NCBI GenBank assembly: GCA_003246855.1
Contig: QKCP01000051.1
Span: 36,095-100,094, forward strand
Reading direction: 5' to 3'
DNA length: 64,000 nt
Source: Ilyobacter polytropus
GTDB lineage: Bacteria; Fusobacteriota; Fusobacteriia; Fusobacteriales; Fusobacteriaceae
The notes under the pieces were generated by a model. It was not told where the DNA came from, searched no databases, and saw nothing but the letters and a program-made list of their open reading frames with translations. Position 1 is the first letter of the stretch. Every line of letters starts with the position of its first letter. Position numbers and translations under genes: made by a program. Below, piece after piece: positions 40,211 to 64,000 of the stretch.

Positions 40211-40238
40211 ATTCCCTTGCCTTTCGGCAAGGGAATGT
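40211..40238 (-). terminator. Hairpin immediately downstream of the secDF-wHTH operon
   Basis: CATTCCCTTGCC-(GAAA loop on the minus strand)-GGCAAGGGAATG is a 12-bp perfect stem. The T tract after it is weak. Confidence 0.55.
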
Positions 40239-40241
40239 ATT

Positions 40242-40448: not shown

Positions 40449-40450
40449 TA

Positions 40451-41332: not shown

Positions 41333-41335
41333 CTT

Positions 41336-42556: not shown

Positions 42557-42589
42557 GATGTCCTCCCTCGTAGAGTTAAAAAACTCTTT

Positions 42590-43012
42590 TTATTTTCTGC
42601 TGTTCATATCAAGGTATGTTTGCAAAATAATTGTCGCAGCTACCTTGTCTACAACTTTTCTTTTTTGTTTTGCATCTTTTTTAGTCATTTCATTTAACAT
42701 CCTGTCTGCAGAAACAGTTGAAAATCTTTCATCAACCTCAATTATATCAAGGTCTTTTATTTCCTTTTTTAGCTTATCAATAAACTCCCTTACTTTTTCA
42801 GCCTGTCTTTTTTCAGAACCATCAAGACTTTTTGGGATCCCTACCACTATATTTTTAGTATTTTCACTATCACAAATTTCTTTTATACGCTTTACAGCCT
42901 TTGTTTTTCTCCTGTCGATAACTTCAAGAGGAGATGCGAACATGCCGAGTACATCGGATTTCGCTACACCTATTCGCACATCTCCTATATCAAGTGCCAA
43001 GTATTTCTTCAT
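42590..43012 (-). CDS. ruvX: Putative pre-16S rRNA nuclease / Holliday junction resolvase-like YqgF
   Basis: 140 aa with LALDIGDVRIGVAKSD and DERFSTVSA. Confidence 0.92.
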   Translation of the reverse strand: MKKYLALDIGDVRIGVAKSDVLGMFASPLEVIDRRKTKAVKRIKEICDSENTKNIVVGIPKSLDGSEKRQAEKVREFIDKLKKEIKDLDIIEVDERFSTVSADRMLNEMTKKDAKQKRKVVDKVAATIILQTYLDMNSRK

Positions 43013-43063
43013 AAAACTTTCTCCCGTATAAAAAGCAAGAAGTGAGCATAACTCACCCTTACT

Positions 43064-45670: not shown

Positions 45671-45773
45671 TCTGTTCTCCTTCCTTAACGCCTATTTTCC
45701 AATGATATAATATAAGATTTAAAATTAATTGTCAAATTAATTTATTTGATGGCAAAACAAGAGAACAAGGAAA

Positions 45774-46499
45774 TCAATCCAATTTGAACCCCTGACCTAG
45801 GTATACTCTTCTTGCTGTATCATCATTTGAAATCTCTTCAGGGGTACCGCTTATCAGCACCTTTCCTTCGGCCATTATATAGGCCCTTTCTGTTATGCTC
45901 AAGGTTTCCCTTACGCTATGGTCAGTAATCAGTATTCCCAAACCTTTTTCTTTGAGGTACCTCACTATATTCTGTATATCCTCCACTGCTATCGGATCCA
46001 CTCCTGCAAAAGGTTCATCCAAAAGTATAAAGTCAGGATCATTTGCTATTGTCCTTGCTATTTCGACCCTTCTCCTCTCCCCACCAGATAGGGAGTACCC
46101 CAAAGACTTTGAGACATGGGTAAGCTTAAACTCATCTAGCAGGTTCTCCATTCTCTCAACCCTGTCTTTCTTTTCTATATTCCTCATTTCCAGTATCGAG
46201 AGTATGTTTTCCTCAACAGTAAGGTTCCTAAAAACAGACGGTTCTTGAGCCAGATACCCTATGCCAAGTCTTGCCCTCTTATACATCGGATATCCAGTTA
46301 TATCCACCTCATTTAAGAATACACTCCCTGTTTCCGGCTTAACTATTCCAGTTATCATATAAAACGTGGTTGTTTTTCCGGCACCGTTTGGACCGAGAAG
46401 TCCCACTATCTCACCCTTATTTACCTCAAGGCTCACTCCGTTTACAACTCTTCTTTTCTTGTAAGACTTACACAAGTCCTGGGCTATAATTGATTTCAT
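45774..46499 (-). CDS. lptB: LPS export ABC transporter ATP-binding protein LptB
   Basis: 241 aa with [22 protein letters not shown] and a C-terminal [11 protein letters not shown]. It sits directly downstream of the OstA-like giant gene. Confidence 0.88.
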
Positions 46500-46520
46500 A
46501 GGTTTAGCTCCTTTATAGTT

Positions 46521-49500: not shown

Positions 49501-49802
49501 ACTCCATCTATATTACCGGACAGCACCAGGTTTTTAAGTGCATCTATAAAAGCACTATCTGAACTTATGCTCATATTCTTAAAAATAGCCTTTGCATTTT
49601 TAAAAAATGTTTCTTTTTTCTCTATGTCATCTATTTGCGTCTCAGCCCTGAGTTTGTAGTCTTTTGACTTGTACACAACCCCCCTGGTTTCTATTATATC
49701 CGTAAGGTCAAACTTCAGAGGGGATTCCTCTTTGAAGTAGTTAAAATATACAAACAAAACAAATAAAATGGCTGCCAATATATAAAGAATTTTTTTTAAC
49801 AT
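46521..49802 (-). CDS. Giant membrane-anchored OstA/LptA/LptC-like repeat protein with a distinct C-terminal tandem domain
   Basis: 1093 aa with one N-terminal TM (ILYILAAILFVLFVYF). I count ten exact G-[ND]-[IV] strand motifs (e.g. LSGNIT, LTGNVE, LSGDVT, AEGNVR, FIGNVV) interleaved with K-x-A-x-Y strands (SKSAEY, SKKADY), as in LptA/LptC beta-jellyrolls. RBS AGGAGG. It occupies the lptC-lptA position upstream of lptB. Confidence 0.7.
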   Translation of the reverse strand: MLKKILYILAAILFVLFVYFNYFKEESPLKFDLTDIIETRGVVYKSKDYKLRAETQIDDIEKKETFFKNAKAIFKNMSISSDSAFIDALKNLVLSGNIDGVGKNGWKISAKSASYSAEMEKLYSEEGVTAYNEEKKISIFGDRFESDKSMEDMVLSGNITVRTESLILKGEKAHYSDSTDMLDMDGGIEFSVVSKDGGAPITGRFDSLEYDGKKKIARGHGNLVADYDGMKMSGREFVYYENSGDFEVLENLKITGDGVDLGLKKIYYNNSKREMNLYGKIIGKSEGYKFSANSGVYYPDRKILKISDDVSVLGEKGDKLIAELVEYNTATGEAAFLAPSSGKVEYVSAKERLSSKNFNYNLKTKELFAANKYIYTGEKYTSTGDSMLYNTDTKKGLLKNAKIEDGKNRLSATETNVDFSQLKHTLKGKVSATYGDYMISSKSAVVDETTEKITFDSNFKIIQQKKKLEISGDSGYYSDRLKKAEVTKNAKVLNSEYFIQSKSAEYNLDNEEANFNGDIFAKDLNKGHELRAEEAIYKKDSFIKLTGNVEMKIDGYTISSKKADYDKRKELIYLPGEIEFSGSDIKGRMYEGYYDLQKKSFTGRNFYAVSQERELRGKNGHYSSEEKILKLSGDVTVKDAEMEAMSQGITYYIPTSYAVSEKDVSIKYGGINLDSKWAKVNMDTDTAEGGDVTFRDNYGESVSGDGYLADFKNNAMEVAGDVSGVLLTKGGKDLKFSLGEEKLYFKSDLLRLLLRKNGGSYSVYKSELRNNVELNYGDYRIFTQKLELDHFSRESISNGNSRLQKSDGSEISSDKLRFNSNTKVAVAEGNVRMKSILKDSGEVHVSSDYAKYDDMNRQSEFIGNVVLDKGGTTMWSDEGYYDMQKEQVKGKGNVFVEHLSGVESDRKKEGKKRQIAVKNIQTAMDKVKIQSLIRNSVFNLNLPAFHGEVLIEWDSSDVKTIGKNGKVNHPGYLAGDSMIKLTGTFTLEGVSRKKDYYVKVEKEVKEKYLSRELSKFELGVYPEGAVAIELPKNISDIKLEWQSLGGFIDSNGKIVGKPKNGPVLKALFRLEDKRSQKIFSAVIKNRELRFVAE

Positions 49803-49817
49803 TAATGCCTCCTGAGC

Positions 49818-52439
49818 TTATAGCTCCTCTCTCAACTTCTTTTTGAATTCGTTTAGCTTGAAAAGAGCATCCAATGGTGTAGTGTTGTTTAAATCCATAG
49901 CTTCTAACTCGTCCAAAACAAGCTTTTTCCCCTCACTCAAAATTTCCTTTGGATCTTCTTCCTCCTCAATGGCAGGTACAACATTTTGACCTCCGAAAAG
50001 TAATAATTGCTCCCCTTTTATCTTTTTCTCTATTATGGCTCTCTTTTCTTCCAGCATTTTTAGGGTGTGTTTGGACTTTTTCAATATTTCTTTGGGCAGA
50101 CCGGCAAGCCTAGCTACCTCTATCCCGTATGACTTGTCTGCTCCTCCCCTGACTATCTCCCTGAGAAATATTACGCTTTCCTGGGTTTCCTTTACCTCTA
50201 TCCTGAAGTTCACCATTTTCTCGTAATTATTCTCAAGCTCTGTTAGTTCATGGTAGTGAGTAGCAAAAATAGTCTTAGCTCCTATTTTATCGTGTATGTA
50301 CTCGGTTATGGAGCTGGCTATGGATATCCCGTCAAAAGTTGAAGTCCCCCTCCCGACTTCGTCTAAAATGACAAACGAATTTTCTGTCGAGTTATTCACT
50401 ATGTTGGCTACCTCACTCATCTCCACCATAAAGGTAGACTGCCCGCTGACTAAATCATCGCTAGCCCCTACCCTTGTAAATATTTTGTCAACCACACCTA
50501 CTTTGGCATAGGTTGCCGGCACGTAAGAGCCTATCTGTGCCATTAGTATTATAAGTGCATTTTGCTTCATGTATGTAGATTTACCGGCCATGTTCGGTCC
50601 GGTTAATATTATTATCCTTTCTTCTTCGTCCATTTTGATGCTGTTTTTCACAAATTTTTCTTCCCCTATAAGCTTTTCAACTATGGGGTGCCTGCCATCT
50701 TTTATCTCTAGGCCATAATCCGCACTTATTTCAGGGCATACATAGTTATTTTTTGTGGCAACATCCGCTAAAGATACTATCACATCCAAATATGAAACCC
50801 CGTAAGCAAGCTCCTTTATGATTAATTTGCTATCCTTTAGCTTAGCCGATACTCTTTTGAAGAGTTCGTACTCAAGCGCTTCTATCTTCTCTTTGGCATT
50901 TAGTATCTTAGACTCGTACTCCTTAAGTTCGGACGTTATATATCTTTCAGCATTTGAAAGTGTCTGCTTTCTTATGTAATCTTGCGGAACTAGGTGTACA
51001 TTGGATTTGGTTACCTCCAAAAAGTACCCAAACACTTTGTTGTACTTTATCTTCAAATTTTTTATACCACTTTTTTCTTTCTCCTTTGTTTCTATCGCTA
51101 TTAGGTAGTCTTTACCAGATTTAGAGATTTGGTGCAACTCGTCTAAGTAGCTGTCATAACCCCTTTTTACTATATTTCCTTCTCTCACCGAAAAAGGGGG
51201 TTCGTCACATATAGATTCTTCTATTAAATTGTATATGCCGACGAGTTCCTCTATATTTGTCTGAAAGAGCTGTTTTTCACCCAAAATCTTTATTATTTCC
51301 AGTATGGATTTTATTGATTTTTTCATGGCTATTAGATCCCTAGCGTTCTCAGTTCCAAGGATTATTTTCCCCATAAGCCTCTCCAGGTCATATACCTCTT
51401 TCAGTTTTTCCTTTATCTCTTCGCGCACCAGGACCTCTTCTATAAAGTACCCGATATCGCCCTGCCTTTCCCTTATTTTTTGTGGATTCATAAGAGGATT
51501 CTTTATAAACTTTTTCAAAAGTCTGGTTCCCATGGAAGTTTTACACCTATCCAAGACCCAAAGTAGGGTCCCGTGACTGGTTTTTTCATTCTGGTTTCGC
51601 GTCAGCTCAAGATTTCTTTGTGTGGTTAGATTAAGCTCCATATACTCTTCCATGCTGTCGTACGCTATTCTGTCTATGGGAAGTTCAGCATGTTTTTGAA
51701 GCTCAAGTATATAGTTCAAAGTCATTCCGCAAGCAAGAATACTTACTTCTTTTTGAGATAAACCATAGCTTTCCAAGGATACTACATTAAAGTACTCTTT
51801 CAATAGTTCCTCACAGTTTTTTGGCCCCTTTACCCTGTTTACTACAACCTCACTCAAGTACGCATAGTTATCGAGTTCCTGTTTATATTTATTGTATACT
51901 GCCTCGTTCACCACTATCTCGTTTGGTGCAACTTTGTGCACTTCATTCAATACTTTGAGTATAAGGTTTTCGCCGCTTACTTCTGTAACCCTAAACTCAC
52001 CAGTTGTGATGTCCACATATGCTAGTGCGGCAACCTCGCCATTAGCTTCTATTCCTAATAGGTAGTTGTTACTTTTTTCATCAAGATACTCGGTATCTAT
52101 CACCGTCCCCGGAGTTATTACCTTTATGACCTCTCTTTTCACTATCCCCTTGGCTTCCTTAGGATCTTCCACCTGCTCGCATATCGCCACCTTATACCCC
52201 TTGGCAACGAGCTTGCTTATGTAGGATGCCGCCGAGTGAAACGGAACCCCCGCCAACGGGACTTCCTGATCTTTCTCCTTATTCCTGCTTGTGAGTGTTA
52301 TGCCGAGTTCTTTCGAGCTAGTCACAGCATCCTCGAAAAACATCTCGTAAAAATCTCCCAACCTGAAGAAAAGGATGGAGTCCTCGTACTGGGACTTTAT
52401 CTCCTTGTATTGTTTCATAAGCGGTGTTTCTTTAACCAT
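49818..52439 (-). CDS. mutS: DNA mismatch repair protein MutS
   Basis: 873 aa with TPLMKQY, GDFYEMF, TGPNMAGKST and STFMVEM. Confidence 0.98.
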   Translation of the reverse strand: MVKETPLMKQYKEIKSQYEDSILFFRLGDFYEMFFEDAVTSSKELGITLTSRNKEKDQEVPLAGVPFHSAASYISKLVAKGYKVAICEQVEDPKEAKGIVKREVIKVITPGTVIDTEYLDEKSNNYLLGIEANGEVAALAYVDITTGEFRVTEVSGENLILKVLNEVHKVAPNEIVVNEAVYNKYKQELDNYAYLSEVVVNRVKGPKNCEELLKEYFNVVSLESYGLSQKEVSILACGMTLNYILELQKHAELPIDRIAYDSMEEYMELNLTTQRNLELTRNQNEKTSHGTLLWVLDRCKTSMGTRLLKKFIKNPLMNPQKIRERQGDIGYFIEEVLVREEIKEKLKEVYDLERLMGKIILGTENARDLIAMKKSIKSILEIIKILGEKQLFQTNIEELVGIYNLIEESICDEPPFSVREGNIVKRGYDSYLDELHQISKSGKDYLIAIETKEKEKSGIKNLKIKYNKVFGYFLEVTKSNVHLVPQDYIRKQTLSNAERYITSELKEYESKILNAKEKIEALEYELFKRVSAKLKDSKLIIKELAYGVSYLDVIVSLADVATKNNYVCPEISADYGLEIKDGRHPIVEKLIGEEKFVKNSIKMDEEERIIILTGPNMAGKSTYMKQNALIILMAQIGSYVPATYAKVGVVDKIFTRVGASDDLVSGQSTFMVEMSEVANIVNNSTENSFVILDEVGRGTSTFDGISIASSITEYIHDKIGAKTIFATHYHELTELENNYEKMVNFRIEVKETQESVIFLREIVRGGADKSYGIEVARLAGLPKEILKKSKHTLKMLEEKRAIIEKKIKGEQLLLFGGQNVVPAIEEEEDPKEILSEGKKLVLDELEAMDLNNTTPLDALFKLNEFKKKLREEL

Positions 52440-52446
52440 GTTTATC

Positions 52447-53406
52447 CTACACCTCGCATTTTTTGTTTATTTCTCTCAGGTTCTCCAGAATCTCTATAAG
52501 TTCTTCGTAATTTTGAGACCTGTTTATCAGATTTTTCATCTGACTCGAATACTTGAGTCCCTTTATGTACCAGCAAAGATGTTTTCTTATTTCAAAGTAG
52601 AACTCCCTGTCAAAGACGTCCTCCATTACATACCCGATATGTTTTATTGCCATATCTATCCTATCGTCAACAGTCACCTGGGTTTTCACTTCCCCAGTTT
52701 CCATTATCTCCCTGATCTGCCTTATAAGCCAAGGGTTCCCAAAAATACCCCTAGCCAGCATAACTCCGTCTACCCCTGCCATATTTGCCCTCTCCAGGGC
52801 ATCTTCTGCGGTAAATAAATCCCCGTTACCTATAACAGGTATTGATACCTCTTCCTTTACACGCTTTATGACCTCCCAATTCGCCACTCCGCTGTACATC
52901 TGTTCCCTTGTCCTACCGTGAATGGTTATATGGCTCAGTCCGAGCTCTTGGGCTATCTCTGCCATCTCTAGAGGATTTTTATGCTGTTTATACCCTATCC
53001 TTATCTTCATGGAAAGGGTGGTGTCGTCGCTTAAGGATTCCCTTATCTCATACATCATTTTTTTCACATGTTCCGGGTCGGCTAACAATGCTGATCCGTA
53101 TCCGTTTTTTACTATCTTTGGCATGGGACATCCAAGGTTTACGTCTATTTTTTTTGCCCCGGCACCTTCTGCAAACTTAGCACTATCCTTCATGTACTCT
53201 ATGTCCTTGCCGAATATTTGCACCCCATCCCCAGGGTTAAGCCTCAAAAGCTGTCCCACGGTTTTTTCGTTAGCCATCATCACTGCGTTAGAGCTCACCA
53301 TTTCTGTAAACACCAAGTCAGGGGCAAACTCGTTTAGTATTCTCCTATAACTGTAGTCGGTTACTCCTGCTATAGGCGCCACATATATTTTAAAATTGCT
53401 GTTCAT
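52447..53406 (-). CDS. dusB: tRNA-dihydrouridine synthase
   Basis: 319 aa with APIAGVTD, DVNLGCP and ITIHGRT. Confidence 0.92.
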   Translation of the reverse strand: MNSNFKIYVAPIAGVTDYSYRRILNEFAPDLVFTEMVSSNAVMMANEKTVGQLLRLNPGDGVQIFGKDIEYMKDSAKFAEGAGAKKIDVNLGCPMPKIVKNGYGSALLADPEHVKKMMYEIRESLSDDTTLSMKIRIGYKQHKNPLEMAEIAQELGLSHITIHGRTREQMYSGVANWEVIKRVKEEVSIPVIGNGDLFTAEDALERANMAGVDGVMLARGIFGNPWLIRQIREIMETGEVKTQVTVDDRIDMAIKHIGYVMEDVFDREFYFEIRKHLCWYIKGLKYSSQMKNLINRSQNYEELIEILENLREINKKCEV

Positions 53407-53421
53407 ATCCTTACTCCTCTT

Positions 53422-53943
53422 TTATAAATCCTTACCCATTCTTATATCCCTGTGCCAGCCACCAAATGCGTAGGTGCCCTTCTCATTTACATCTATCTCT
53501 CTATACCCTAACTCTTGATAAAGAGAAAGAGCCCTTTCATTAAACGAAAATACGCTAAGCTCAGCTCTCTTCACTCCGACTTCGGATATCATCCCTTCAA
53601 TCTCTAAAAGAGCGGTTTTTTCCACATACAGATTCCAGTAATTTTTCTCCCCTATTATCATTTGTACCATAGCATGCCTTTTGCTGTTTATGTCAAAACA
53701 GTCCACCCCAGTGTCGTAGCATACATAACCTACAGTTTCACCATGAAAATCAACCATGTAAGCAGTCTTGCTGTACTTGCCTATGCGTTTAATAACTTCA
53801 TGTTTCCCGACGCGCTCAAAATCGTCTGCTTCTTTAAAATTTGGAAAAAAATATGGCCTTATCTCAAGGTCATTCTCCCATTTCTCAATAAGGCCTAAAT
53901 CATCTAAGTTTTTTACTTTTCTCAAAACGATACCGCTTTTCAT
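53422..53943 (-). CDS. GNAT-family N-acetyltransferase
   Basis: 173 aa with a GNAT-like core (VGYVCY..., ERALSLYQELGY). Confidence 0.7.
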   Translation of the reverse strand: MKSGIVLRKVKNLDDLGLIEKWENDLEIRPYFFPNFKEADDFERVGKHEVIKRIGKYSKTAYMVDFHGETVGYVCYDTGVDCFDINSKRHAMVQMIIGEKNYWNLYVEKTALLEIEGMISEVGVKRAELSVFSFNERALSLYQELGYREIDVNEKGTYAFGGWHRDIRMGKDL

Positions 53944-54035
53944 TCATCCACCTTTTATAATAAATATTAATCAAGAAATTAACCCCTCTGTAACTTAAGA
54001 ATTATATCATATCTATCCTATTTTTTCAAACATTT

Positions 54036-54079
54036 GGGAAATAAAAAAGACCTCGTATACGAGGTCTTTTTTATTTCCC
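54036..54079. terminator. Perfect 44-bp palindrome acting as a bidirectional intrinsic terminator
   Basis: GGGAAATAAAAAAGACCTCGTA/TACGAGGTCTTTTTTATTTCCC. The core hairpin GACCTCG-TATA-CGAGGTC has A6 and T6 flanks. It lies downstream of the 98-aa gene on the minus strand. Confidence 0.8.
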
Positions 54080-54112
54080 ATCTTAAACTATAAGCCACTT
54101 AAGAATGCCAGC

Positions 54113-54409
54113 CTACACATACACTATAGTTATCTCATCAAGTTCTTCGTCAAGTTCTTCAACGGCCCTTATTATCTTGGAAAACTCCCTTTTTTTAGCC
54201 GACCTTTCTATATCGTCCCCTAGTTTATATATCTCATAAAATCCATAGTCATCAGCTATATCTTTCATTGTACAGGCTATTTTTTCCACAGTTTCAAAAT
54301 CACCTTCATAAGCAGAGTCACTCAGTAACAATACTTCCATTTTTCGATTTTTAAGGAAATCAGGTATTTTTTCTTTTAAATCTCTTGGTATAAAAACAGT
54401 ATCGCTCAT
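54113..54409 (-). CDS. Small acidic protein with an HPt-domain-like layout but no histidine
   Basis: 98 aa. FLKNRKMEVLLLSDSAYEGDFETVEKIACTMKDIADDYGF...LGDDIERSAK resembles the HPt four-helix pattern, with Cys where the phospho-His normally sits. Confidence 0.4.
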   Translation of the reverse strand: MSDTVFIPRDLKEKIPDFLKNRKMEVLLLSDSAYEGDFETVEKIACTMKDIADDYGFYEIYKLGDDIERSAKKREFSKIIRAVEELDEELDEITIVYV

Positions 54410-54484
54410 ATCTACCCCCCCTAAATAAATCCTATATAATACTACTTACAATATCCACATGAAATTCCTCTTAAAAAATTAAAA

Positions 54485-54501
54485 AGGCGCGTATCGCGCC
54501 T
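54485..54501 (-). terminator. Intrinsic terminator of the BI-1/YccA-family gene
   Basis: The minus strand reads AGGCGCG-ATA-CGCGCCT followed by TTTTTAATTTTTT. It overlaps the stop codon. Confidence 0.75.
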
Positions 54502-55196
54502 CAATCCCTTGACCTTCCAAATATTCTCAAAAGATATATGAATAGGTTTATAAAATCCAAATATAACTTTAAAGCCCCGAATATCGAGTACTTGGCCAGC
54601 ACTTCTTCATCGCCATCCGATATCTCCATAAGCATGTATTTTATTCTGTTAACGTCATAGCCTATAAGAGCTATAAAAAGTATTACACCAAAATACGAAA
54701 TAACCATGTAAAACATAGGCCCTTTTATAAGGAACATATTTAGAAGTGATGCCACCACCAAAATTATAAGACCAACAGTCAGAAGCGATGTGTACTTACT
54801 CAGATCCTCCTTCGTCACATATCCGTAAATGGCCATTACGGCAAATAGGATAGTTGTCAAAGCTAATGCCAAAGTTATAGACCCCGCAGAAAACACCATC
54901 CCAAGTACAGAAAAAGTAACTCCCGTAAGCGCTGCATAAAGGTAGAATAAAATTTTCGCCGTAGCTGCCGATATCTTATTTATCATAAAAGAAAAAAACA
55001 TAACGACTCCGAATTGCATAATTACCACAGGCATATAACTCCTTAAAACCGCCTGGTAGAGGTTCGGATTAGAAAAAATATAAGTCGCCGTAATAAAAGT
55101 TACTAAAAGAGCCGAGAACATCCATAAAAACACCTTATTGATTGCCTTAGACACCTGTTTTTCATCTAAATTATAAGTCATTCTTCTACCATACAT
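54501..55196 (-). CDS. BAX inhibitor-1/YccA-family membrane protein
   Basis: 231 aa with seven predicted TM helices. FLWMFSALLVT... and a C-terminal LYLDFINLFIYLLRIFG fit the family. Confidence 0.8.
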   Translation of the reverse strand: MYGRRMTYNLDEKQVSKAINKVFLWMFSALLVTFITATYIFSNPNLYQAVLRSYMPVVIMQFGVVMFFSFMINKISAATAKILFYLYAALTGVTFSVLGMVFSAGSITLALALTTILFAVMAIYGYVTKEDLSKYTSLLTVGLIILVVASLLNMFLIKGPMFYMVISYFGVILFIALIGYDVNRIKYMLMEISDGDEEVLAKYSIFGALKLYLDFINLFIYLLRIFGRSRD

Positions 55197-55272
55197 TTTT
55201 TATCTCCCCCTAACTAATATTTACGATCAGTTTAAAAATTAAAGACAGAAGATTACTCCTGTCTTTAATATA

Positions 55273-57207
55273 CTACTTATTCTCTAGCTTGTCCATATCA
55301 AATTTTATTCTAGTCTCTTCTTTTATCGCAGTTACAAATTCAGAAAGAGCCTGTGTAGTCTGATCTTTAGAACCGAATCTTCTTATATTTACTTCTCTGT
55401 TTTCTACCTCGGACTTACCGATAATAAGCTGTACAGGTATTTTATACTTCCCGTTCGCTTCCCTTATTTTATAGCCTATCTTTTCTGCTCTGCTGTCTAG
55501 CTCTACTCTTACCCCCTCGGATTCCAGGATAGAAGCTACTTCTTTTGCATAAGGTATTACATCGTCGTTTATAGTCAGTATCTTTACCTGGGTAGGCGCA
55601 AGCCACAGAGGAAAGGCTCCTGCATAGTGCTCTATTAGTATCCCGATGAATCTTTCGATGCTTCCGTATATTACCCTGTGCACCATTACCGGCCTGTGCT
55701 TATCGTTATCCTCACCTATGTATGAGATGTCAAACCTTTCAGGCAGGTTAAAGTCTAGCTGTATAGTACCGCACTGCCACTCCCTTCCTATGCAGTCCTT
55801 TATCTTGAAGTCAAGCTTAGGTCCGTAAAATGCCCCATCTCCAGGATTTATCTTATAAGCTTTCCCCAGTTTTTTCATAGCGTTTTCAAGGGCGGTTTCC
55901 GCCTTATCCCATATTGCTGCGTCACCAATTGCTTTTTCAGGTTTTGTAGACAGTTCTATTCTGTACTCAAATCCGAAAAGTCCGCTGTAAAACTTATCTA
56001 TAAGCTCTATTACACCTATAATTTCTTCTTCTATCTGTTCCGGAGTCATAAATATATGAGCATCGTCCTGGGTGAAGTTCCTTACCCTCATTAGGCCATG
56101 AAGCGCCCCAGAAAATTCATGCCTGTGAACAAGTCCGAGTTCCCCCATCCTTATAGGCAAGTCTTTGTAGGAGTGCATCCCATGTTTGTAAGCCAGCACC
56201 CCTCCAGGACAGTTCATAGGCTTTATGGCGAATACGGTCTCGTCTATTTCAGAAGTGTACATATTCTCCCTGTAGTTGTACCAGTGTCCCGAAGTTTCCC
56301 AAAGCTCTTTGTTTAGCATAATAGGGGTTTTCACTTCTTGGTACCCTGCTTTTGTATGTTCTTTTCTCCAAAGGTCCTCCAGTACGTTTCTTATCACCAT
56401 ACCCTTTGGAAGAAAAAACGGGAACCCAGGTCCGTACTCCGACATAAAGAAAAGGTCAAGTTCTTTTCCTAGCTTTCTGTGGTCTCTTTTCTCAGCCTCT
56501 TCCAGGAACTTTAAGTGATCCTTTAACTCCTTGTCGCTCGAAAATGCAAACCCGTATATTCTTTGAAGCATCTTGTTGTCCGAGCTACCTCTCCAGTAAG
56601 CACCCGCGACAGATCTCAACTTAAACGCTTTCAGATATCTTGTCGACGGCACATGCGGCCCCCTACAAAGGTCCACAAAATCCCCCTGTTTGTAAAAGCT
56701 CAGCATCTCACCTTTGGCTATATCTCTTATTATCTCAACCTTATACTCTTCTCCCAAGTCTTCGAAATACCTTATGGCATCATCCCTGGACATTTCAAAT
56801 CTCTCTATCTGCACATCCTCTTTTATTATACTTCTCATTTCCTCTTCTATCTTTTCCAGGTCAGTTTCTGTAAACTGCTCCTTTGGATCGAAGTCGTAGT
56901 AGAACCCGTACTCTATCGAAGGCCCTATTGCAACCTTAGTACCAGGAAAAAGCCTGATTACCGCTTGAGCCATCAAGTGAGCGGTACTGTGCCTTATAAC
57001 ATCTACGCCGTCCTCAGTTTCAGGCACTATAATTTCCACGTTGGCGTCCCTTTCAAGGACGTATCCCATATCCACTGCTTGTCCATCCACTTTGGCAGCA
57101 AGGGCCTTTTTCGCCAACGAATTACTTATACTTTTTGCGATTTCAAACATGTTAACCGAACCTTCGAACTGCTTTATATCGCCGCTAGGCAAACTTACAT
57201 TTATCAT
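55273..57207 (-). CDS. thrS: Threonine--tRNA ligase
   Basis: 644 aa with a TGS N-terminus, the editing-domain HSTAHLMAQA, class II core motifs (FRHEFSGALHGLMRVRNFTQDDAHIF) and an anticodon-binding C-terminus. RBS GAGGAGG. Confidence 0.98.
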   Translation of the reverse strand: MINVSLPSGDIKQFEGSVNMFEIAKSISNSLAKKALAAKVDGQAVDMGYVLERDANVEIIVPETEDGVDVIRHSTAHLMAQAVIRLFPGTKVAIGPSIEYGFYYDFDPKEQFTETDLEKIEEEMRSIIKEDVQIERFEMSRDDAIRYFEDLGEEYKVEIIRDIAKGEMLSFYKQGDFVDLCRGPHVPSTRYLKAFKLRSVAGAYWRGSSDNKMLQRIYGFAFSSDKELKDHLKFLEEAEKRDHRKLGKELDLFFMSEYGPGFPFFLPKGMVIRNVLEDLWRKEHTKAGYQEVKTPIMLNKELWETSGHWYNYRENMYTSEIDETVFAIKPMNCPGGVLAYKHGMHSYKDLPIRMGELGLVHRHEFSGALHGLMRVRNFTQDDAHIFMTPEQIEEEIIGVIELIDKFYSGLFGFEYRIELSTKPEKAIGDAAIWDKAETALENAMKKLGKAYKINPGDGAFYGPKLDFKIKDCIGREWQCGTIQLDFNLPERFDISYIGEDNDKHRPVMVHRVIYGSIERFIGILIEHYAGAFPLWLAPTQVKILTINDDVIPYAKEVASILESEGVRVELDSRAEKIGYKIREANGKYKIPVQLIIGKSEVENREVNIRRFGSKDQTTQALSEFVTAIKEETRIKFDMDKLENK

Positions 57208-57260
57208 AATTCCTCCTCATCTATGTTAATCCTTGATTTTCCACCATGCAACTACAGGAT

Positions 57261-57289
57261 ATTATAGTGTATATTGGCTATTTTTTCAA
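57261..57289 (-). promoter_or_regulatory. Candidate sigma-70 promoter (P2) immediately upstream of thrS
   Basis: The minus strand reads TTGAAA, a 17-nt spacer, then TATAAT. It lies between the leader terminator and the thrS RBS. Confidence 0.5.
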
Positions 57290-57310
57290 GTTTTAAAAGG
57301 CACCGTATAT

Positions 57311-57346
57311 AAAAACAGGCCATTTAGGCGTTTGCCCAAATGGCCT
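57311..57346 (-). terminator. Strong intrinsic terminator in the thrS upstream region (candidate attenuator)
   Basis: The minus strand reads AGGCCATTTGGGC-AAAC-GCCTAAATGGCCT, a 13-bp stem with one G-U pair, followed by GTTTTT. Confidence 0.8.
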
Positions 57347-57427
57347 CAATCAATAAATCCAAAACTTCAACCACGGGTACAAACTCCAAAAACGTGAACC
57401 GGGTTTGCCCCTCTAGAAGGGTAAACC

Positions 57428-57469
57428 CTATATTGTGGTTTTTGTTGTTGAACTAAAATATCCTAACAT
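57428..57469 (-). CDS. Candidate 13-aa Thr-rich leader peptide MLGYFSSTTKTTI
   Basis: AGGAG lies 7 nt upstream of the ATG at 57469. Codons are atg tta gga tat ttt agt tca aca aca aaa acc aca ata tag. The stop abuts the first hairpin segment. Not in the ORF track because it is too short. Confidence 0.55.
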   Translation of the reverse strand: MLGYFSSTTKTTI

Positions 57470-57500
57470 ATATATTCTCCTGCTTGAAATGGTATTTCAA

Positions 57501-57531
57501 ATATTAAAACATTTTTACACTTATATGTCAA
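57501..57531 (-). promoter_or_regulatory. Candidate promoter (P1) for the thrS leader transcript
   Basis: The minus strand reads TTGACA, a 17-nt spacer, then TTTAAT preceded by TGT (extended -10-like). It starts 11 nt after the lptD-like stop. Confidence 0.45.
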
Positions 57532-57541
57532 GGTGTAATCG

Positions 57542-60500
57542 CTATTCTACATAGCTGTCCACATCCACGCCGCTGTCCAAGAAAAGTGGCCTAACACTTG
57601 AGTTGTATGATTTTTCAGCCCCAAATATAGGCATATTAGGGAAGGTAAGTAGGGCTACTTCAAACGAAAGGCTCCACTCATAATCCTCTGTGGTCTTATC
57701 CCACTCGTTTTTAAATGCCACAGAAAATTCATAGAAATCCCTCTCTTTTCCGAGCTCCACCCCGTATTCGTCGAAGAGTTTTCCGTCGTCATCTTTGGAT
57801 GAATCCTCATCTAGTCTGGTGAAAAGCTTCAACCTCCACGAGTTGCTCGGTTCCCCTAGCTTGGTCTGCATTGCTATTTCGTGTTCCCTCTCAGTTTCGG
57901 TTTTGATCCATTCACCGGAGCTGTATTGAAAATTTGCGGTCTGGTCAAAAGCGTACGCCAGCTTTAATCTATTGTAGCCGGTTTCCAACCTTATCTCGCT
58001 CTCTTTTAAGCTATCGAAAAAGTCGCCGGTCTGGTCATAGTACTCCTTGTGTCTTCTACCCAAAAGTGAAACAGCGAAAAAGTTTTTGTAGTCGATCGGC
58101 TCCGCTACCTCTTCTCTTATGCTTTTAAGGTCAGTCCTAACAGCTTCTTCTTCGTTTTCATCCCCTTTATTCCTGTACTCATACCTCAAAGCTATAAGGT
58201 CCTCTTTATAGCTCTCGTCGCCGTCCAGGTAAGTATCTTCACGCTTGTCATAGGACTCATAACTGACATTGTAGAAATTCTCCACAGCCCCACCGTCTAG
58301 ATAGGACACAGAGTAGCCTTGATTTTTCGTATCCAAGTCCACTACGTCTTGAGTAAGATTTCGCCTCTCATCCTCACCCAACTTATACTCAAAATTCCAC
58401 TTGTTTTCACCACGAGACAGCTCATACCCGTATATGTTTTCCAAAAGGTTTTCGTCCACATCATCCACACCGGCACCATTTTTATCAGTTAGGGTGTAAT
58501 CTAGGTTTTCGCCTTTATAGTAAAGTTTGCTGCCTTTAAAAACATACTCCACTGAGTACTTGTTATCGTCCAATCCTATATCGTAAATTTCATTGTTTAT
58601 ATTCTCATAATCTTTTTTGTCGGTTTTCTCCAGACTGCTCTCAAATGCCAAGTAATGTTCTTCACCAAGGGCAAGCTTGAATTTGTTTCCGAGAACATCC
58701 CCCTCTCTGTCGTCGCTAGTCGGGTCGTATAGTTCTTTGTAGTCAAACGTATACTGGGCACCTTTTTCTCCTATCTTAAAGTCTACTGTATCACTGTATT
58801 GGTCGAAATCATCCCTGTTCTTAAATCTGGATTTTTCGTACTCCTCAACGTCACCCGACTCCCTGTCGCTTAAAGAGTATTGATTTTGTGCCCTGGCATA
58901 CCTAAAGGTATTTCCAAGGGTGGAATCCTCACCTACACTAAAGCTCTTTTGATGCGAAACGTAAAATTCATGTTTCTCAGTTTCATCGCCTTCGTCGTAC
59001 TCATCCATTCTGAGTGTGTACCCTGCTCCCATGCTTCCAAAAACCCAAAGTGGAAGTTTCTGCTCATCTAGTTTTATTTCAACAAAATCAGAGTTGTTCT
59101 CATATACCTGGTAGGCATCACCGGCTTGAAAATCCGTATAGGAGTAAACTCCTTCCCTGTCCCACAATTCTTCCTGGGTATTACCTGCACTCACTTTCAA
59201 ACTCAAAGTATCATAGGAGATGGAGGTTCCGAATTTCTCTTCCTCCACTTCCTGATACACCAAGTTTTCAAACCTGTTGTATTGGCTATCCCTTTTATTT
59301 TCAGTATCAGAGACATAACCTTCTCTGAATACATCATTATCCGTGTTCAGACTCTTTTCTGAGTAGTCATAGCTGTATTCAAATCCAGACTTTAGTTTGG
59401 TATCAAATAAGTTATACTCTCCGAACGTCAGCCCGTACCTTTTGGAGTTGGCCACATCATAAAGTGGTACCGTCCAAGGCACATATTTTATATCCAATAC
59501 CTCTTTTAGGTTCGGATCCCGTTCCCAGTACCTTAGACTCCTATACTGATCGCCGTTCTCCTCGCTGTAACTTGCTCCAACTTTGTAGTCCTTCGCTCCT
59601 AAGGCGAACCCGAAGTCCTCTCTCTTAGACTGCATGTCTTCTGGACTAGACCCAGCATCCAGGTCATCCAGGTAGTGGTAGTTTGAAGATATAAGGTAGC
59701 TTTCATTTTCTTTCTTAAAATCCAAATCAGTGTATAAGTCATGGTCTACTTTACTAGAATAACTGGCATTTTCAAGCTCATCGTCCACAATTTCCTGCAG
59801 AATTTCTTTTTTATCCACCAGGTACATATCTCCATAAAAATCTATGTCCTGATTAGCTCCGGCTCCCTTGACGTCGGATTTAAGAGAGTAAAACTGTATA
59901 TTCTCAGAATCACTAGGCCTAAGGTCTGCCTCGGTATATTTGGCGTCGTCTTCCTTCTCATCCCTCAGCTTTTGAAGTTCTTTCCAGTTATTGGCAGTGA
60001 CATTTCTATAAGCGAACTCGATATCTCCTCCGTTGGTCTCGTAGACGTGGGTGTAATCCAAATCCCACCTGTCATCTATGCTGCTATCTTTTTTGTAAAT
60101 AAGTGTATCGGTTAGGTTTATCTGCCCCCAGGTCTTTTCGGTGGGTTGCCATCTGTTCTCAAACCTTCCTATCAATAATCCAAGCTGGTCTGCAAATTTA
60201 GGAGCTATCCCTCCCTTGAAAAACCTGCTGTTTTTCCCGTATATAATACCCCAGCTTGTATAGAATCCGTAATCTTCATCAGATCCCACAATTGGGAAAA
60301 GCGGCACTTCTGATCCAGGCCTCAAGTTTATTGCATACCAAGGAAGCCAAACTACAGGGGTATCCTGTACATAAAGTTTGTTGTTGTGAAAACTGGCCTT
60401 CTCACTTGGCTCCACCACTATCTCAGCAGATGACACGTGGTATTGAGCATCTTTCGGATCTTCTACTTCCAAAACCTTCCTGGTTGTCGTCATCCAGGCA

Positions 60501-60928
60501 TCCTTGACAACTACCTTAGTTTCTGTACCCTCTCCTTGTCTGCCTCCAAAATATATACTGTCATCAGGAGCTTCCGCTCCTGTATCTACCTTTAACCTTC
60601 CTATCCCGTCCTGGAAGTAAAATTTCTTTTCATCCAGATCTAATTTAAGTGCCCCTGTCTCAAACTTCAAGTCAACATTGTCGTCTTCTATCTGAGCTAT
60701 AACATCTTTCTTTGCTTCAACTATGTTGTCTTCAGCATCTCTCTCTATTTCATAGGCTTTCAACCTTATATTATCGAATTTAAAGTTTACCCCGCCCTCT
60801 GCAGTTATTCTCTCATCTTTCAAATCTATGATAACCTCATCACTAGATGAGCTTTGTCCTATATTTTCCTGAGAAAAAGTTATAGAAGCCAGCAGAAAAA
60901 GAAAACCAAAATTCAACTTTTTATACAT
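57542..60928 (-). CDS. lptD: LptD-like LPS-assembly outer membrane protein (enlarged)
   Basis: Signal peptide MYKKLNFGFLFLLASITFS is followed by an OstA-like N-terminal domain (ITAEGGVNFKFDNIRLKAYEIE). The segment TPVVWLPWYAINLRPGSEVPLFPIVGSDEDYGFY is LptD-like. A long Tyr/Asp/Glu-rich beta-barrel-like region follows. Start taken at the ATG at 60928. Confidence 0.75.
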   Translation of the reverse strand: MYKKLNFGFLFLLASITFSQENIGQSSSSDEVIIDLKDERITAEGGVNFKFDNIRLKAYEIERDAEDNIVEAKKDVIAQIEDDNVDLKFETGALKLDLDEKKFYFQDGIGRLKVDTGAEAPDDSIYFGGRQGEGTETKVVVKDAWMTTTRKVLEVEDPKDAQYHVSSAEIVVEPSEKASFHNNKLYVQDTPVVWLPWYAINLRPGSEVPLFPIVGSDEDYGFYTSWGIIYGKNSRFFKGGIAPKFADQLGLLIGRFENRWQPTEKTWGQINLTDTLIYKKDSSIDDRWDLDYTHVYETNGGDIEFAYRNVTANNWKELQKLRDEKEDDAKYTEADLRPSDSENIQFYSLKSDVKGAGANQDIDFYGDMYLVDKKEILQEIVDDELENASYSSKVDHDLYTDLDFKKENESYLISSNYHYLDDLDAGSSPEDMQSKREDFGFALGAKDYKVGASYSEENGDQYRSLRYWERDPNLKEVLDIKYVPWTVPLYDVANSKRYGLTFGEYNLFDTKLKSGFEYSYDYSEKSLNTDNDVFREGYVSDTENKRDSQYNRFENLVYQEVEEEKFGTSISYDTLSLKVSAGNTQEELWDREGVYSYTDFQAGDAYQVYENNSDFVEIKLDEQKLPLWVFGSMGAGYTLRMDEYDEGDETEKHEFYVSHQKSFSVGEDSTLGNTFRYARAQNQYSLSDRESGDVEEYEKSRFKNRDDFDQYSDTVDFKIGEKGAQYTFDYKELYDPTSDDREGDVLGNKFKLALGEEHYLAFESSLEKTDKKDYENINNEIYDIGLDDNKYSVEYVFKGSKLYYKGENLDYTLTDKNGAGVDDVDENLLENIYGYELSRGENKWNFEYKLGEDERRNLTQDVVDLDTKNQGYSVSYLDGGAVENFYNVSYESYDKREDTYLDGDESYKEDLIALRYEYRNKGDENEEEAVRTDLKSIREEVAEPIDYKNFFAVSLLGRRHKEYYDQTGDFFDSLKESEIRLETGYNRLKLAYAFDQTANFQYSSGEWIKTETEREHEIAMQTKLGEPSNSWRLKLFTRLDEDSSKDDDGKLFDEYGVELGKERDFYEFSVAFKNEWDKTTEDYEWSLSFEVALLTFPNMPIFGAEKSYNSSVRPLFLDSGVDVDSYVE

Positions 60929-61144
60929 ATCGACACCACTCTCTCTAAGTATATTTAAGTGCTCCAAAGCATAAGAACTCTATTTTAGAGTATACCACAA
61001 TTTAATTCCATGTTAAAGTTTTTTGTTCCATGATCTAAGGTACCGTTTTCACGATTGCAGCCTTCTGGATAAAAGAGGAAATCCCAACCGGAACTCGTAT
61101 TAAATATACAGAAAAATGAACATAGACTAAAAGAGGAGGATTCT

Positions 61145-62968
61145 ATGAAACTGGAAAAAAAGTTAAAGTTCATCGATGTGTTCTGCATAGCTTCCGGGGC
61201 AATGATAAGTTCCGGTATTTTTATTCTTCCGGGCATAGCCTATGAAAAAGCAGGGCCATCAGTTATCTTCTCCTATTTCCTCGGCGGGGTTCTGGCTTTC
61301 TTGGGTATTTTAAGCATCATAGAGCTTTCTACTGCCATGCCAAAAGCCGGCGGTGATTATTTCTTCATAAACAGGAGTCTGGGACCTCTGGCTGGTACAA
61401 TTTCTGGCATACTCAGCTGGTTCGCCCTATCTTTAAAAAGCGCTTTTGCCATATACGGGCTTTCAGAACTTCTGCGTATTAACTTCAATATCAACCCAAT
61501 TTTTTCCTACATATCATTTGCAGTAGTCTTTATAATTCTAAATATAGTCGGCGTTGAGCTTGCTAGTAAGTTTGAGAATATAATCGTCATATCCCTTCTT
61601 GTAATACTGGGGTTTTTTATATTTTCCGGAACAACATCCTTAAATACCGAAAATTATCTACCATTTTTCAGAACCGGGATAAACTCATCTATATCCACAG
61701 CTTCTTTCATCTTTGTATCGTTTGGCGGGCTTATAAACGTAGCCAGTATATCCGAAGAGGTTATAGCTCCAAAAAAAAATATATCCCAAGGAATAATAGC
61801 CTCAATTGTATTGGTAACCATACTATATACCGCAATCCTTTTCATTACTGTTGGTACATTAGGGGGAGCTATGTCAGGAAATCTAACCCCCCTTGCAGAT
61901 AGCGCCTATATAATTTTCGGAAACAAGGGGTATATAATGATGTCCATAGGTGCCGTACTGGCTTTTTTATCAACAGCAAATGCTGGGATAATGGCCGCTT
62001 CTAGATATCCACTAGCCCTTGCAAAGGATAACCTTATCCCAACATCTATAAGCAAGGTAAGCCATAGGTTCAAAACTCCTTCAACCTCCATACTGGTTAC
62101 CGGCGCCTTTATAATTTCAGCAGGCTTCCTAAAGTTGGAAGTGCTTGTAAAAATGGCTTCGTCGGTTATACTTTTGACATATATACTTACAAATATATCA
62201 GTGATTATATTAAGAGAGAGCAAACTAGAAACTTACCGCCCATCATTTAAAACAAAGTTTTATCCATTTTTACAAATAATCAGTGTGGCGATATATATTA
62301 TACTGATTGTTGATATGGGGATAGCTTCTGTGGAGATTGCCTTTTTCTTCCTGGCCCTTACCTTAGGGGTATACTTTTTCTACGGAAGAAAAAAGTACAG
62401 CGGGCAGTTCGCTATAGGATTGATCCTAGAAAGGATCATAGACAAAAAAGTGGCAAATCGCCATTTGGAAAAAGAGTTAAGAGAGATTGTCCTCAACAGA
62501 GACGAGATAGAGTTAGACCGATTTGATGACTTGGTGCTAAACTCCACAGTATTCGACTTTGATAAAACTTTAAATCTAGATGAAGTTTTTAAAATTTGTA
62601 TTTCAGAACTGCACAAAGAGTACAGTGTAAACACCGAAAGCGTAAAAAAGGAATTCTTTTCTAGGAAAGGAATAGAACATACCGCCATAAATGAATTTTT
62701 AGCCATACCACATATAGTAGTAAACGAGGATATCTTAAAACTTTTTATTGTTAGAAATAAATCAGGCATACGATTCAGTGAAAAAGCTGACTCTATAAAA
62801 TGTATGTTTATTCTTATAGGAACCAAAAACGATAAAAAGTTCCATCTGCAAACTCTAGCTGCAATTGCTAAAATTTCTTTGGAGAAAGGTTTTGAAGAAA
62901 ACTGGTTAAGAATAAAAAGTGAGAGCATAAAGGAATTTATAATACTCTCTGAAAGGAAAAGGTTTTAG
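61145..62968 (+). CDS. APC-superfamily amino-acid permease fused to a C-terminal PTS EIIA type-2-like domain (paralog of 11098..13011)
   Basis: RBS AAGAGGAGG. The N-terminal region is near-identical in places to the other copy (IASGAMISSGIFILPG, MPKAGGDYFF). The C-terminus carries GIEHTAINEFLAIPH ... SIKCMFILIGT ... FHLQTLAAIA. Confidence 0.8.
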   Translation: MKLEKKLKFIDVFCIASGAMISSGIFILPGIAYEKAGPSVIFSYFLGGVLAFLGILSIIELSTAMPKAGGDYFFINRSLGPLAGTISGILSWFALSLKSAFAIYGLSELLRINFNINPIFSYISFAVVFIILNIVGVELASKFENIIVISLLVILGFFIFSGTTSLNTENYLPFFRTGINSSISTASFIFVSFGGLINVASISEEVIAPKKNISQGIIASIVLVTILYTAILFITVGTLGGAMSGNLTPLADSAYIIFGNKGYIMMSIGAVLAFLSTANAGIMAASRYPLALAKDNLIPTSISKVSHRFKTPSTSILVTGAFIISAGFLKLEVLVKMASSVILLTYILTNISVIILRESKLETYRPSFKTKFYPFLQIISVAIYIILIVDMGIASVEIAFFFLALTLGVYFFYGRKKYSGQFAIGLILERIIDKKVANRHLEKELREIVLNRDEIELDRFDDLVLNSTVFDFDKTLNLDEVFKICISELHKEYSVNTESVKKEFFSRKGIEHTAINEFLAIPHIVVNEDILKLFIVRNKSGIRFSEKADSIKCMFILIGTKNDKKFHLQTLAAIAKISLEKGFEENWLRIKSESIKEFIILSERKRF

Positions 62969-62984
62969 CAATAATCAGAAATTT

Positions 62985-63008
62985 AAAAGGAGCCATTTGG
63001 CTCCTTTT
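62985..63008. terminator. Bidirectional terminator between convergent transporter genes
   Basis: AAAAGGAGCCA-TT-TGGCTCCTTTT palindrome. Confidence 0.75.
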
Positions 63009-64000
63009 AAATTGTTTCTGCTTTTATTTTTGAATATTTTTTAGATATCTTATTTACTATTATTGCTATAGCACCATCGCCAGTTACATTTGTAGCTGTA
63101 CCAAAGCTGTCTTGAGAAAAATGAAGTGCTATCATAAGTGCCTGATGCGAAGCACCAAACGAAAGCATGTTTTCAAGAAGCCCCAAAGCAGCCATCACCC
63201 CTCCACCTGGTATACCAGGTGCTGCAACCATGGTTACACCTAGCATAAGTATAAACGGAAACATCATGGCCATGGTGGGCTCTACACCCATACCAAGCAT
63301 GAACCCCATACTACCTAAAACTAATGCTATAGTATCTCCGGCCAGGTGTATAGTCGCGCATAAAGGCACCACAAAATCCACCACATCCTCTTCCACACCG
63401 TTTTTCCTAGAACACTCCAAACTAACAGGTATGGTGGCTGCAGACGATTGCGTCCCCACAGCTGTAAAATATGCCGGAAGCATATTTTTAAGTGCACCAA
63501 CAAGGGGTTTACCAGTGTATGCATTCACAGCTATGTACTGGATCATTATGTAAACTGCCTGCATCGCCAGTATTAGTGCAAAAATTGAAGAAAACGCCTT
63601 TATGGTAGCCAAAAGCCTACCTTCTGCGGTAATCCTTGAAAATATACCTGCAATGTGAACCGGAATAAGCGGAATTACGACTTTAGATATTACTTTACTT
63701 ACTATCTTTTGTAAGTCCGACACAGCTTTAAAAAGGTTTTTTTCTTTCAGATTTGCCATACCTAGTCCAAGCAAAAACGCTAATACCAAAGCGGACATTA
63801 CTCCTATGACAGCTGGCATCTCAATTGTAAAGTAAGGCGAAATATCTATACCACTTTTTTCTCCGAGTCCGCCTAACTTGTTTACCAGTTTTGGCAGTAC
63901 TGCCTTTCCAGCAAAAAAAGCTAAAAGACCTGCTATTATAGTGGAAGTATACGCAATGGCAACAGTAGAAATAAATATATTGTTTGCCTTTTTCCCGAGA
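63007..64000 (-). CDS. Dicarboxylate/amino acid:cation symporter family protein (SstT-like Ser/Thr transporter); 5' end beyond window
   Basis: The listed ORF begins at an internal Met. The same frame stays open to nt 64000 (..LGKKANNIFISTVAIAYTSTIIAGLLAFFAGKAVLPKLVNKLGG..YFTIEMPAVIG). C-terminal motifs GTQSSAATIP, PLCATIHLAGD and TNVTGDGAIAIIVNK fit the DAACS/SstT family. Confidence 0.8.
   Translation of the reverse strand, partial: LGKKANNIFISTVAIAYTSTIIAGLLAFFAGKAVLPKLVNKLGGLGEKSGIDISPYFTIEMPAVIGVMSALVLAFLLGLGMANLKEKNLFKAVSDLQKIVSKVISKVVIPLIPVHIAGIFSRITAEGRLLATIKAFSSIFALILAMQAVYIMIQYIAVNAYTGKPLVGALKNMLPAYFTAVGTQSSAATIPVSLECSRKNGVEEDVVDFVVPLCATIHLAGDTIALVLGSMGFMLGMGVEPTMAMMFPFILMLGVTMVAAPGIPGGGVMAALGLLENMLSFGASHQALMIALHFSQDSFGTATNVTGDGAIAIIVNKISKKYSKIKAETI

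Follow-up and report, generated by a model that had tools for sequence, protein, structure and literature searches.

A ribosome-mediated attenuator, one that works through a leader peptide, is likely to set the transcription of thrS according to the supply of charged tRNA-Thr in the DNA studied here, a stretch of 64 kilobases (kb) of contig QKCP01000051.1 (the window). The spacer of 334 nucleotides (nt) between the stop codon of the upstream open reading frame (ORF; 57542) and the ATG of thrS (57207) contains what one looks for in an attenuator: a short ORF led by a Shine-Dalgarno (SD) sequence, a cluster of codons cognate to the synthetase, an intrinsic terminator before thrS and an upstream promoter, the last judged by its match to consensus. 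These elements and their positions are plain to see in the sequence, and so are their conservation and the alternative pairings among them. The same architecture lies 5' of thrS in seven diverged lineages that belong to one monophyletic ThrS clade, and it is this comparative evidence that decides the case in support of an attenuator.

Elements of the thrS leader

All of the elements are read on the minus strand of the window. They are as follows.

57503..57531, minus strand: predicted promoter P1, with TTGACA at 57531..57526, a 17-nt spacer and TTTAAT at 57508..57503
57477..57481, minus strand: SD sequence AGGAG of the leader ORF, with the ATG (57469) 7 nt further on
57428..57469, minus strand: leader ORF of 13 codons plus a stop codon, encoding MLGYFSSTTKTTI
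57448..57446 (ACA), 57445..57443 (ACA), 57439..57437 (ACC) and 57436..57434 (ACA), minus strand: Thr codons, read from the sequence
57401..57428, minus strand: hairpin A:B, with segment A at 57428..57419, segment B at 57411..57401 and a folding free energy of -13.3 kcal/mol
57375..57384, minus strand: segment C, a near copy of A
57368..57385, minus strand: antiterminator strand, made of segment C and GUGGUUG, AGUUUGUACCCGUGGUUG
57311..57346, minus strand: intrinsic terminator, a 13-bp stem (57346..57334 with 57329..57317) and the loop AAAC
57261..57289, minus strand: predicted promoter P2, TTGAAA-17-TATAAT, matching 11 of 12 consensus positions, 3' of the terminator
55273..57218, minus strand: thrS with its SD sequence (GAGGAGG, 57218..57212; ATG at 57207; 644 amino acids)
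57542..60967, minus strand: upstream ORF of 1141 amino acids, with no Pfam or NCBIfam match
57544..57542, minus strand: stop codon of the upstream ORF, read from the sequence

The Thr codons occupy positions 8, 9, 11 and 12 of the leader ORF, which puts four of them among its last six codons. The first base of segment A is the G that ends the leader stop codon, TAG, and the apex of the terminator, GGGCAAAC, repeats 8 nt of B exactly. Seven of the 13 pairs of the terminator stem are G-C (hairpin free energy, -23.5 kcal/mol), and the stem is followed by a G and then by UUUUU at 57315..57311. The spacer of P1 ends in TGn, with TG at 57511..57510. A simple scanner failed to list this promoter because TTTAAT has no A at its second position; P1, like the corresponding promoters in relatives, is a match to consensus. 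Directly 3' of its -10 hexamer stands a perfect inverted repeat, TTGAAAT-ACC-ATTTCAA (57484..57500, minus strand), whose pairing is retained in the related locus L083 by means of G.U and is not evident in another, L087. It may form a hairpin at the 5' end of the leader transcript or serve as a protein operator.

Much of this had been read beforehand from the letters of the window alone. That original prediction described P1 as TTGACA-17-TTTAAT, followed by AGGAG, 7 nt and a Thr-rich ORF of 13 codons, and every element it listed is found, on the minus strand, where it was said to be. Its assignment of thrS is confirmed by the TGS, tRNA_SAD, tRNA-synt_2b and HGTP_anticodon domains (Pfam) of the product, those of a threonyl-tRNA synthetase (ThrRS). 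The upstream stop codon was also rightly placed at 57542; the name lptD-like given to the gene that ends there finds no backing in Pfam or NCBIfam.

The Thr-rich mini-ORF is not a chance feature. On both strands of the 64 kb, it is the sole ATG-initiated ORF of 8 to 30 codons that has at least four Thr codons within six consecutive codons. Shuffled sequence would be expected to provide 1.18 such ORFs per window, and 0.04 if an SD sequence must lead them. The 201-nt leader folds with a z-score of -3.1. Origin from a repeat or a mobile element was considered and rejected: when as many as 3 mismatches are tolerated, neither hairpin A:B nor the terminator turns up a second time in the window.

Known families of regulatory RNA do not account for the region either, which was one of the checks that the original prediction had proposed. 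Neither Thr_leader (RF00506) nor T-box (RF00230) of Rfam matches the window at gathering threshold, or positions 57150..57650 with an expectation value (E) up to 10, and a scan of eight related loci (seven plus that of Ilyobacter polytropus) gave no match to either family. The same scan had no trouble recognizing a T-box, at 96.3 bits, 5' of thrS in L148 (1235..1415), which served as positive control. L148 is a metagenome contig, probably from a Firmicute, and its ThrS is 57% identical over the N-terminal 200 amino acids. The best sub-threshold match was to the trpB motif, at 23 bits where the gathering score is 59; it is driven by the terminator and was discarded as noise. An early survey that included two genomes of Fusobacteria/Thermotogae found no T-boxes in them (PMC2494555), and the literature searched holds no account of a thrS leader peptide in Fusobacteria.

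Conservation of the leader with thrS

The closest named proteins to the ThrS of the window are 77-81% identical to it. ThrS identity among the seven leader-bearing lineages is about 70-81%, and their intergenic DNA is otherwise barely alignable. Within the window's own cluster, drawn at 90% ThrS identity, the 334-nt spacer is preserved. Its most diverged copy, L083, shows one synonymous change of a Thr codon (ACA to ACT) and, in the 3' arm of the terminator, a change of AA to GG that replaces two U:A pairs with U.G. The architecture recurs, at about 80% ThrS identity, in L087/L088 (leader peptide MLELLISTTETTD), in L085/L090/L091 (MNSYMIKSTTTTSTTS) and in L089, the type of Ilyobacter polytropus, where the leader MLYGVFFDTTTTLTNK is found in the finished genome of DSM 2926 and in five other assemblies. 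In the DSM 2926 genome (CP002281.1) the leader falls between 1806128 and 1811050, in minus orientation. L096 encodes MNFYMMKSIATTSTTI, and L126/L129, with ThrS about 70% identical over the N-terminal 200 amino acids, encode MRLLTTTTDTFI/L. A further orthologous leader peptide is MLEYFSSTTKTTI.

The frame of the L089 leader is broken by a run of T7 in place of T6, at about 2860..2870. This was set aside as a homopolymer assembly error: L089 is a long-read metagenome contig, and six other assemblies of I. polytropus (L176-L181), the finished genome among them, have T6. Propionigenium maris DSM 9537 probably carries the leader as well, as its ThrS falls within the 90% cluster of the L091 leader type, an assignment made from cluster membership.

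What is kept among these lineages may be followed from one end of the leader to the other. Eight of the nine sequences checked have a perfect TTGACA, a 17-nt spacer that ends in TGn and a -10-like hexamer, lying 31-37 nt 5' of the leader ATG. Counted by leader type, this P1-type promoter is full in five of six, the exception being L129 (of the L126/L129 type) with TTGACT. An SD sequence (AGGAG, GGGAG or AAGGAG) precedes the leader ATG in every lineage. The ORFs have 12-16 codons, 4-6 of them for Thr, and the Thr codons are always in frame with the SD-led ATG while ACA, ACT, ACC and ACG interchange synonymously; outside the Thr run the peptide varies freely. The hairpin at the stop codon begins 0-5 nt from the first stop base in all lineages (-9 to -16 kcal/mol), and a near copy of its 5' arm recurs 12-21 nt past its 3' arm in every type. 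Finally, a strong terminator with a U-run (-15 to -25 kcal/mol) occupies the same place in every lineage, with differing sequence. The recurrence in relatives of the mini-ORF, its Thr run and segments A, B and C, on which the original prediction had staked its case, is thus borne out.

One might see in P1, the mini-ORF and the terminator an independent gene for a small RNA or a micropeptide, possibly acting in trans, with no hand in the regulation of thrS. The unit does have its own promoter and its own terminator, thrS does have P2 in the lineage of the window, and an attenuator RNA, once released, can work in trans, as rnTrpL of Sinorhizobium does (PMC6614838). Yet a peptide valued for itself fits poorly with one that is conserved only in its Thr run. 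The unit is always directly 5' of thrS and on the same strand, in four lineages thrS is without any other recognizable promoter, and conservation extends to the strand that alternates with the terminator, something a plain small-RNA gene would not need. I consider a separate gene quite unlikely.

The gene upstream of the leader differs from one lineage to another. It is a GGDEF gene in the L085/L090/L091 type and another, unrelated gene in L089. The layout is kept where the upstream gene is different: the leader travels with thrS and not with its neighbor. In related Cetobacterium and Fusobacterium, 20-40 nt separate a large upstream ORF from thrS, and there is neither leader nor terminator between them.

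These facts bear on the simplest alternative, that the hairpin and U-run are only the terminator of the upstream 1141-amino-acid gene, that P2 drives thrS, and that the mini-ORF and the complementarity of A, B and C arose by chance. The terminator is indeed about 200 nt past the stop codon of the upstream ORF, a near-consensus P2 does follow it, and folding at equilibrium reveals no switch. Against this, the same ORF, hairpins and terminator are found 5' of thrS despite a different upstream gene, and also where P2 is absent. Nearly every lineage has a perfect TTGACA promoter ahead of the leader, and only 0.04 such ORFs per window are expected by chance. The relatives without a leader, with their upstream gene so close to thrS, lack the terminator as well. 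The original prediction had named termination of the upstream message as an outcome that would tell against it; the persistence of the layout next to different upstream genes says otherwise. The comparative data have largely refuted this alternative, and I regard it as extremely unlikely.

P2 itself, overlooked in the original prediction, deserves closer attention. Promoter and upstream flank (CCTTTTAAAAC) are conserved among the window, L083, L087 and L088, and P2 is absent from the leaders of L085/L091 (Propionigenium-like), I. polytropus, L096 and L126. In L129, a 10/12 promoter match between terminator and thrS is of doubtful significance. The distance from terminator to thrS is 45-91 nt in four of the six leader types (L085/L091, I. 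polytropus, L096 and L126/L129), with no promoter-like site within it, so thrS in these types must be expressed by reading through the terminator, unless another promoter exists. In the lineage of the window and in L087, P2 is probably a constitutive-looking source of basal thrS mRNA, independent of the attenuator. Inspection by eye of 57260..57208, between P2 and the thrS ATG, shows one stem, AUCCU (57260..57256) with AGGAU (57233..57229), enclosing a large loop, and no 7-nt xGU loop such as an anticodon-arm mimic near the thrS ribosome binding site, of the E. coli operator type, would have. The stem starts just 3' of the -10 hexamer of P2 and reads AUUCU/AGAAU in L087, a compensatory change of C:G to U:A; it may form a 5' stem-loop on the P2 transcript.

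In a neighbor-joining tree of ThrS, the leader-bearing sequences form one clade, with L119 as the sole exception. L119 lies within the clade and has no Thr leader. Its 310-nt spacer (about 1190..1500) contains GC-rich perfect palindromes, for example CCAAGGGGCAACGCC/GGCGTTGCCCCTTGG, and a repeated unit, GGGGCTTTGCCCCGAACCC, all bordered by ACTCAGG and CCTGAGT. The appearance is that of a small repeat element inserted in place of the leader.

As to the surroundings, the 1141-amino-acid ORF carries a C-terminal ...LLTFP...IFG... motif and is conserved directly 5' of thrS in most of the Fusobacteriaceae loci examined. The GC skew is strongly negative across the window (1..64000) except in 24001..28000, and at gathering level Rfam finds no match at all in the 64 kb (no tRNA, rRNA or riboswitch).

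Alternative pairings and a model of attenuation

Duplex searches turn up alternative pairings at equivalent positions in all six leader types. In the window, segment B can pair with A or with C, the C:B duplex having a free energy of -13.0 kcal/mol. The antiterminator strand, 57385..57368, can pair with the whole 5' arm and loop of the terminator, and its duplex with AGGCCAUUUGGGCAAAC is worth -12.5 kcal/mol. Another possible partner of this strand is the leader ORF, its Thr-codon region included, where AACCAC meets GUGGUU in the window. In all six types the copy called C overlaps the antiterminator strand, and pairing with the 5' arm of the terminator comes to -11 to -13 kcal/mol. As modeled, the antiterminator is longer than the segment C of the original prediction, and the Thr-codon region contributes an added helix of the kind called 1:2. 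Four A:B hairpins can be aligned without gaps; 92% of their cells are paired, against 19-60% in slid controls, and three of the pairs show compensatory change.

I propose the following course of events, inferring that the leader is translated, that ribosomes stall within it, and that the outcome is set kinetically and in response to Thr-tRNA. Transcripts from P1 would open with the 13-codon ORF and its Thr codons. When Thr-tRNA is plentiful, the ribosome would get to the stop codon, and its footprint would cover segment A. With A covered, B would capture C, the Thr-codon region could pair with GUGGUU, and the antiterminator strand would be locked. The 13-bp terminator would then nucleate at its free apex, and transcription would end with the U-run, some 185 nt beyond the predicted P1 start.

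When Thr-tRNA is scarce, the ribosome would stall at Thr codons 8 and 9, masking the region of the Thr codons and leaving A exposed. A:B could then form, and C and GUGGUUG would be free. The free strand would pair with the 5' arm and loop of the terminator before the 3' arm is made, and RNA polymerase would read into thrS. In the lineage of the window and in L087, P2 would supply basal thrS mRNA, to which the attenuator would add an inducible fraction. The model follows the classical logic of 1:2, 2:3 and 3:4 pairings, with the A:B/B:C alternation as an additional lock. In essence it is the ribosome-position model of the original prediction, which the analysis supports and extends by the longer antiterminator and the 1:2 helix; that model took no account of P2.

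How far does folding reproduce such a switch? The RNA was truncated before the 3' arm of the terminator and folded with 28-nt masks in place of ribosomes. In L085 and L096, the 5' arm of the terminator goes from about 0.5-0.65 unpaired, with no ribosome or one at the stop codon, to about 0.1-0.3 with the ribosome at most of the Thr codons. The change is weaker in L087 (0.52 to 0.33-0.46 unpaired). In the window it is limited to the apex: the unpaired fraction of the loop is 0.76 when the ribosome sits at the stop codon and 0.06 when it sits at Thr8 or Thr9, which agrees with the earlier idea that C blocks the site where the terminator nucleates. The chain of pairings first proposed, A:B, B:C and C with the terminator, is recovered by folding, and a clean switch at equilibrium is seen in some lineages only.

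Several results weigh against the proposed attenuator. The truncated leaders of L083, I. polytropus and L126 fold in a way that does not distinguish a ribosome at the stop codon from one that has stalled. The full-length leader forms the terminator at equilibrium in every ribosome state, so a switch would have to be kinetic; for the terminator to win at equilibrium is usual for attenuators. The z-scores of the duplexes against shuffled sequence are modest (-0.2 to -3.9), and formal covariation on the four alignable A:B hairpins does not go beyond that of shuffles, the sequences being few. The -10 hexamer of P1, TTTAAT, is non-canonical. Finally, with P2 matching 11 of 12 consensus positions 3' of the terminator, some of the expression of thrS in the window may escape the attenuator, whose quantitative weight in this lineage is tempered to that extent. 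From nine leaders aligned by MAFFT, RNAalifold picked up no more than fragments of B:C and of the terminator, as divergence among the lineages prevents an alignment in register.

The weak discrimination in several lineages between stalled and terminating ribosomes, seen in silico, would be expected if the attenuator were coupled to translation without being specific for Thr-tRNA, sensing instead general ribosome activity or the coupling of transcription to translation. Any ribosome that reached the stop codon would affect a hairpin abutting it. The Thr run, on the other hand, is the only part of the peptide that is conserved, and the gene regulated is thrS, neither of which fits a general sensor. 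I think it very unlikely that this is what the leader senses.

In every lineage, segments A and/or C contain U-UGU-A or C-UGU-A, a motif like the anticodon loop of tRNA-Thr(UGU) that always lies within stems. It may be simply ancestral sequence. It might instead be bound, as UGUA/CUGUA, by ThrRS or some other RNA-binding protein, whose binding would shift the balance between terminator and antiterminator. Such protein-mediated attenuation would have a logic analogous to that of the thrS operator of E. coli, where ThrRS regulates its own synthesis through mimics of the anticodon arm, and the presence of the motif in all lineages speaks for it. But the motifs are inside stems and not in 7-nt loops, and a protein that binds them would leave unexplained the conserved SD sequence, the ATG and the in-frame Thr codons that vary synonymously. 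I give this possibility very little credence.

Known systems and the meaning of the leader

A close counterpart in function is the thr operon leader of E. coli, thrL (RF00506). Both have a short, Thr-rich leader peptide and an intrinsic terminator whose pairing excludes that of an antiterminator; read-through of thrL rises when charged tRNA-Thr is low, and that of the thrS leader would do so too. In contrast, thrL controls the biosynthetic genes thrABC and not a synthetase, has Ile codons as well, and is gammaproteobacterial; the leader of the window bears no similarity to it in sequence or to its covariance model (E up to 10). The established precedent for leader-peptide control of a synthetase is pheM-pheST of E. 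coli, which shares with the thrS leader the attenuation of an aminoacyl-tRNA synthetase operon and differs in having Phe codons, another synthetase, a gammaproteobacterial host and unrelated sequence.

Two other systems act on the same gene by other means. The T-box of thrS and thrZ in B. subtilis (RF00230) likewise responds to the charging of tRNA-Thr by antitermination in the thrS leader, but it binds uncharged tRNA directly, with no ribosome or ORF, and nothing of the kind is detectable in the leader of the window. The translational operator of E. coli thrS also exerts feedback through the 5' leader, but there ThrRS binds mimics of the anticodon arm that overlap the ribosome binding site, the control is translational, and there is no leader ORF or terminator.

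The model shares its logic with the trp attenuator of E. coli, where the position of the ribosome selects between overlapping helices; the pairing of the Thr-codon region with the antiterminator corresponds to the 1:2 helix. In comparison, the thrS leader has in addition the stop-abutting hairpin A:B and the duplicate of A (segment C), which make of it a chain of five segments. Candidate leader peptides have been described in Streptomyces lividans TK24 5' of leuS, trpS, alaS and thrS (PMC8079986). The last of these, 'thrL' (MKRVRPFLETTPGFVPAR), is the nearest precedent, in that a leader peptide is proposed 5' of thrS, but it is a weak candidate: it has two Thr codons only, is leaderless, lacks a clear intrinsic terminator and is not backed by comparison with relatives (PMC8079986). 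It comes from another phylum, and its sequence is unrelated.

It is very probable, judging from what the genomes have in common, that the leader represents a previously undescribed family of Thr-codon leader-peptide attenuators for thrS in the Ilyobacter/Propionigenium clade. The leader is present in a cultured strain, I. polytropus DSM 2926, and probably in a second, P. maris DSM 9537, so the proposal can be put directly to the test.

The regulation of thrS is a textbook subject among the synthetases, and two solutions to it are known: Firmicutes use the T-box and E. coli a translational operator. I lean, by a little, towards a larger claim, that the leader of the window is the founding example of its family: that the family has a single origin, in the Ilyobacter/Propionigenium branch of the Fusobacteriaceae, whose phylum has no T-boxes, and adds a third, independent answer to the problem of thrS feedback control; that its five segments work as a double lock, in which it is the terminating ribosome that triggers the off state; and that the released RNA of about 185 nt could also act in trans. 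If the attenuator is real, annotators would gain a new cis-regulatory family, one that Rfam lacks. It would be the first ribosome-mediated attenuator found described for Fusobacteriota, within the literature searched, and, pheST aside, among the very few well-supported cases where attenuation controls a synthetase and not a biosynthetic operon. The control of thrS would then have been solved a third time, by a route that evolved independently of the other two.

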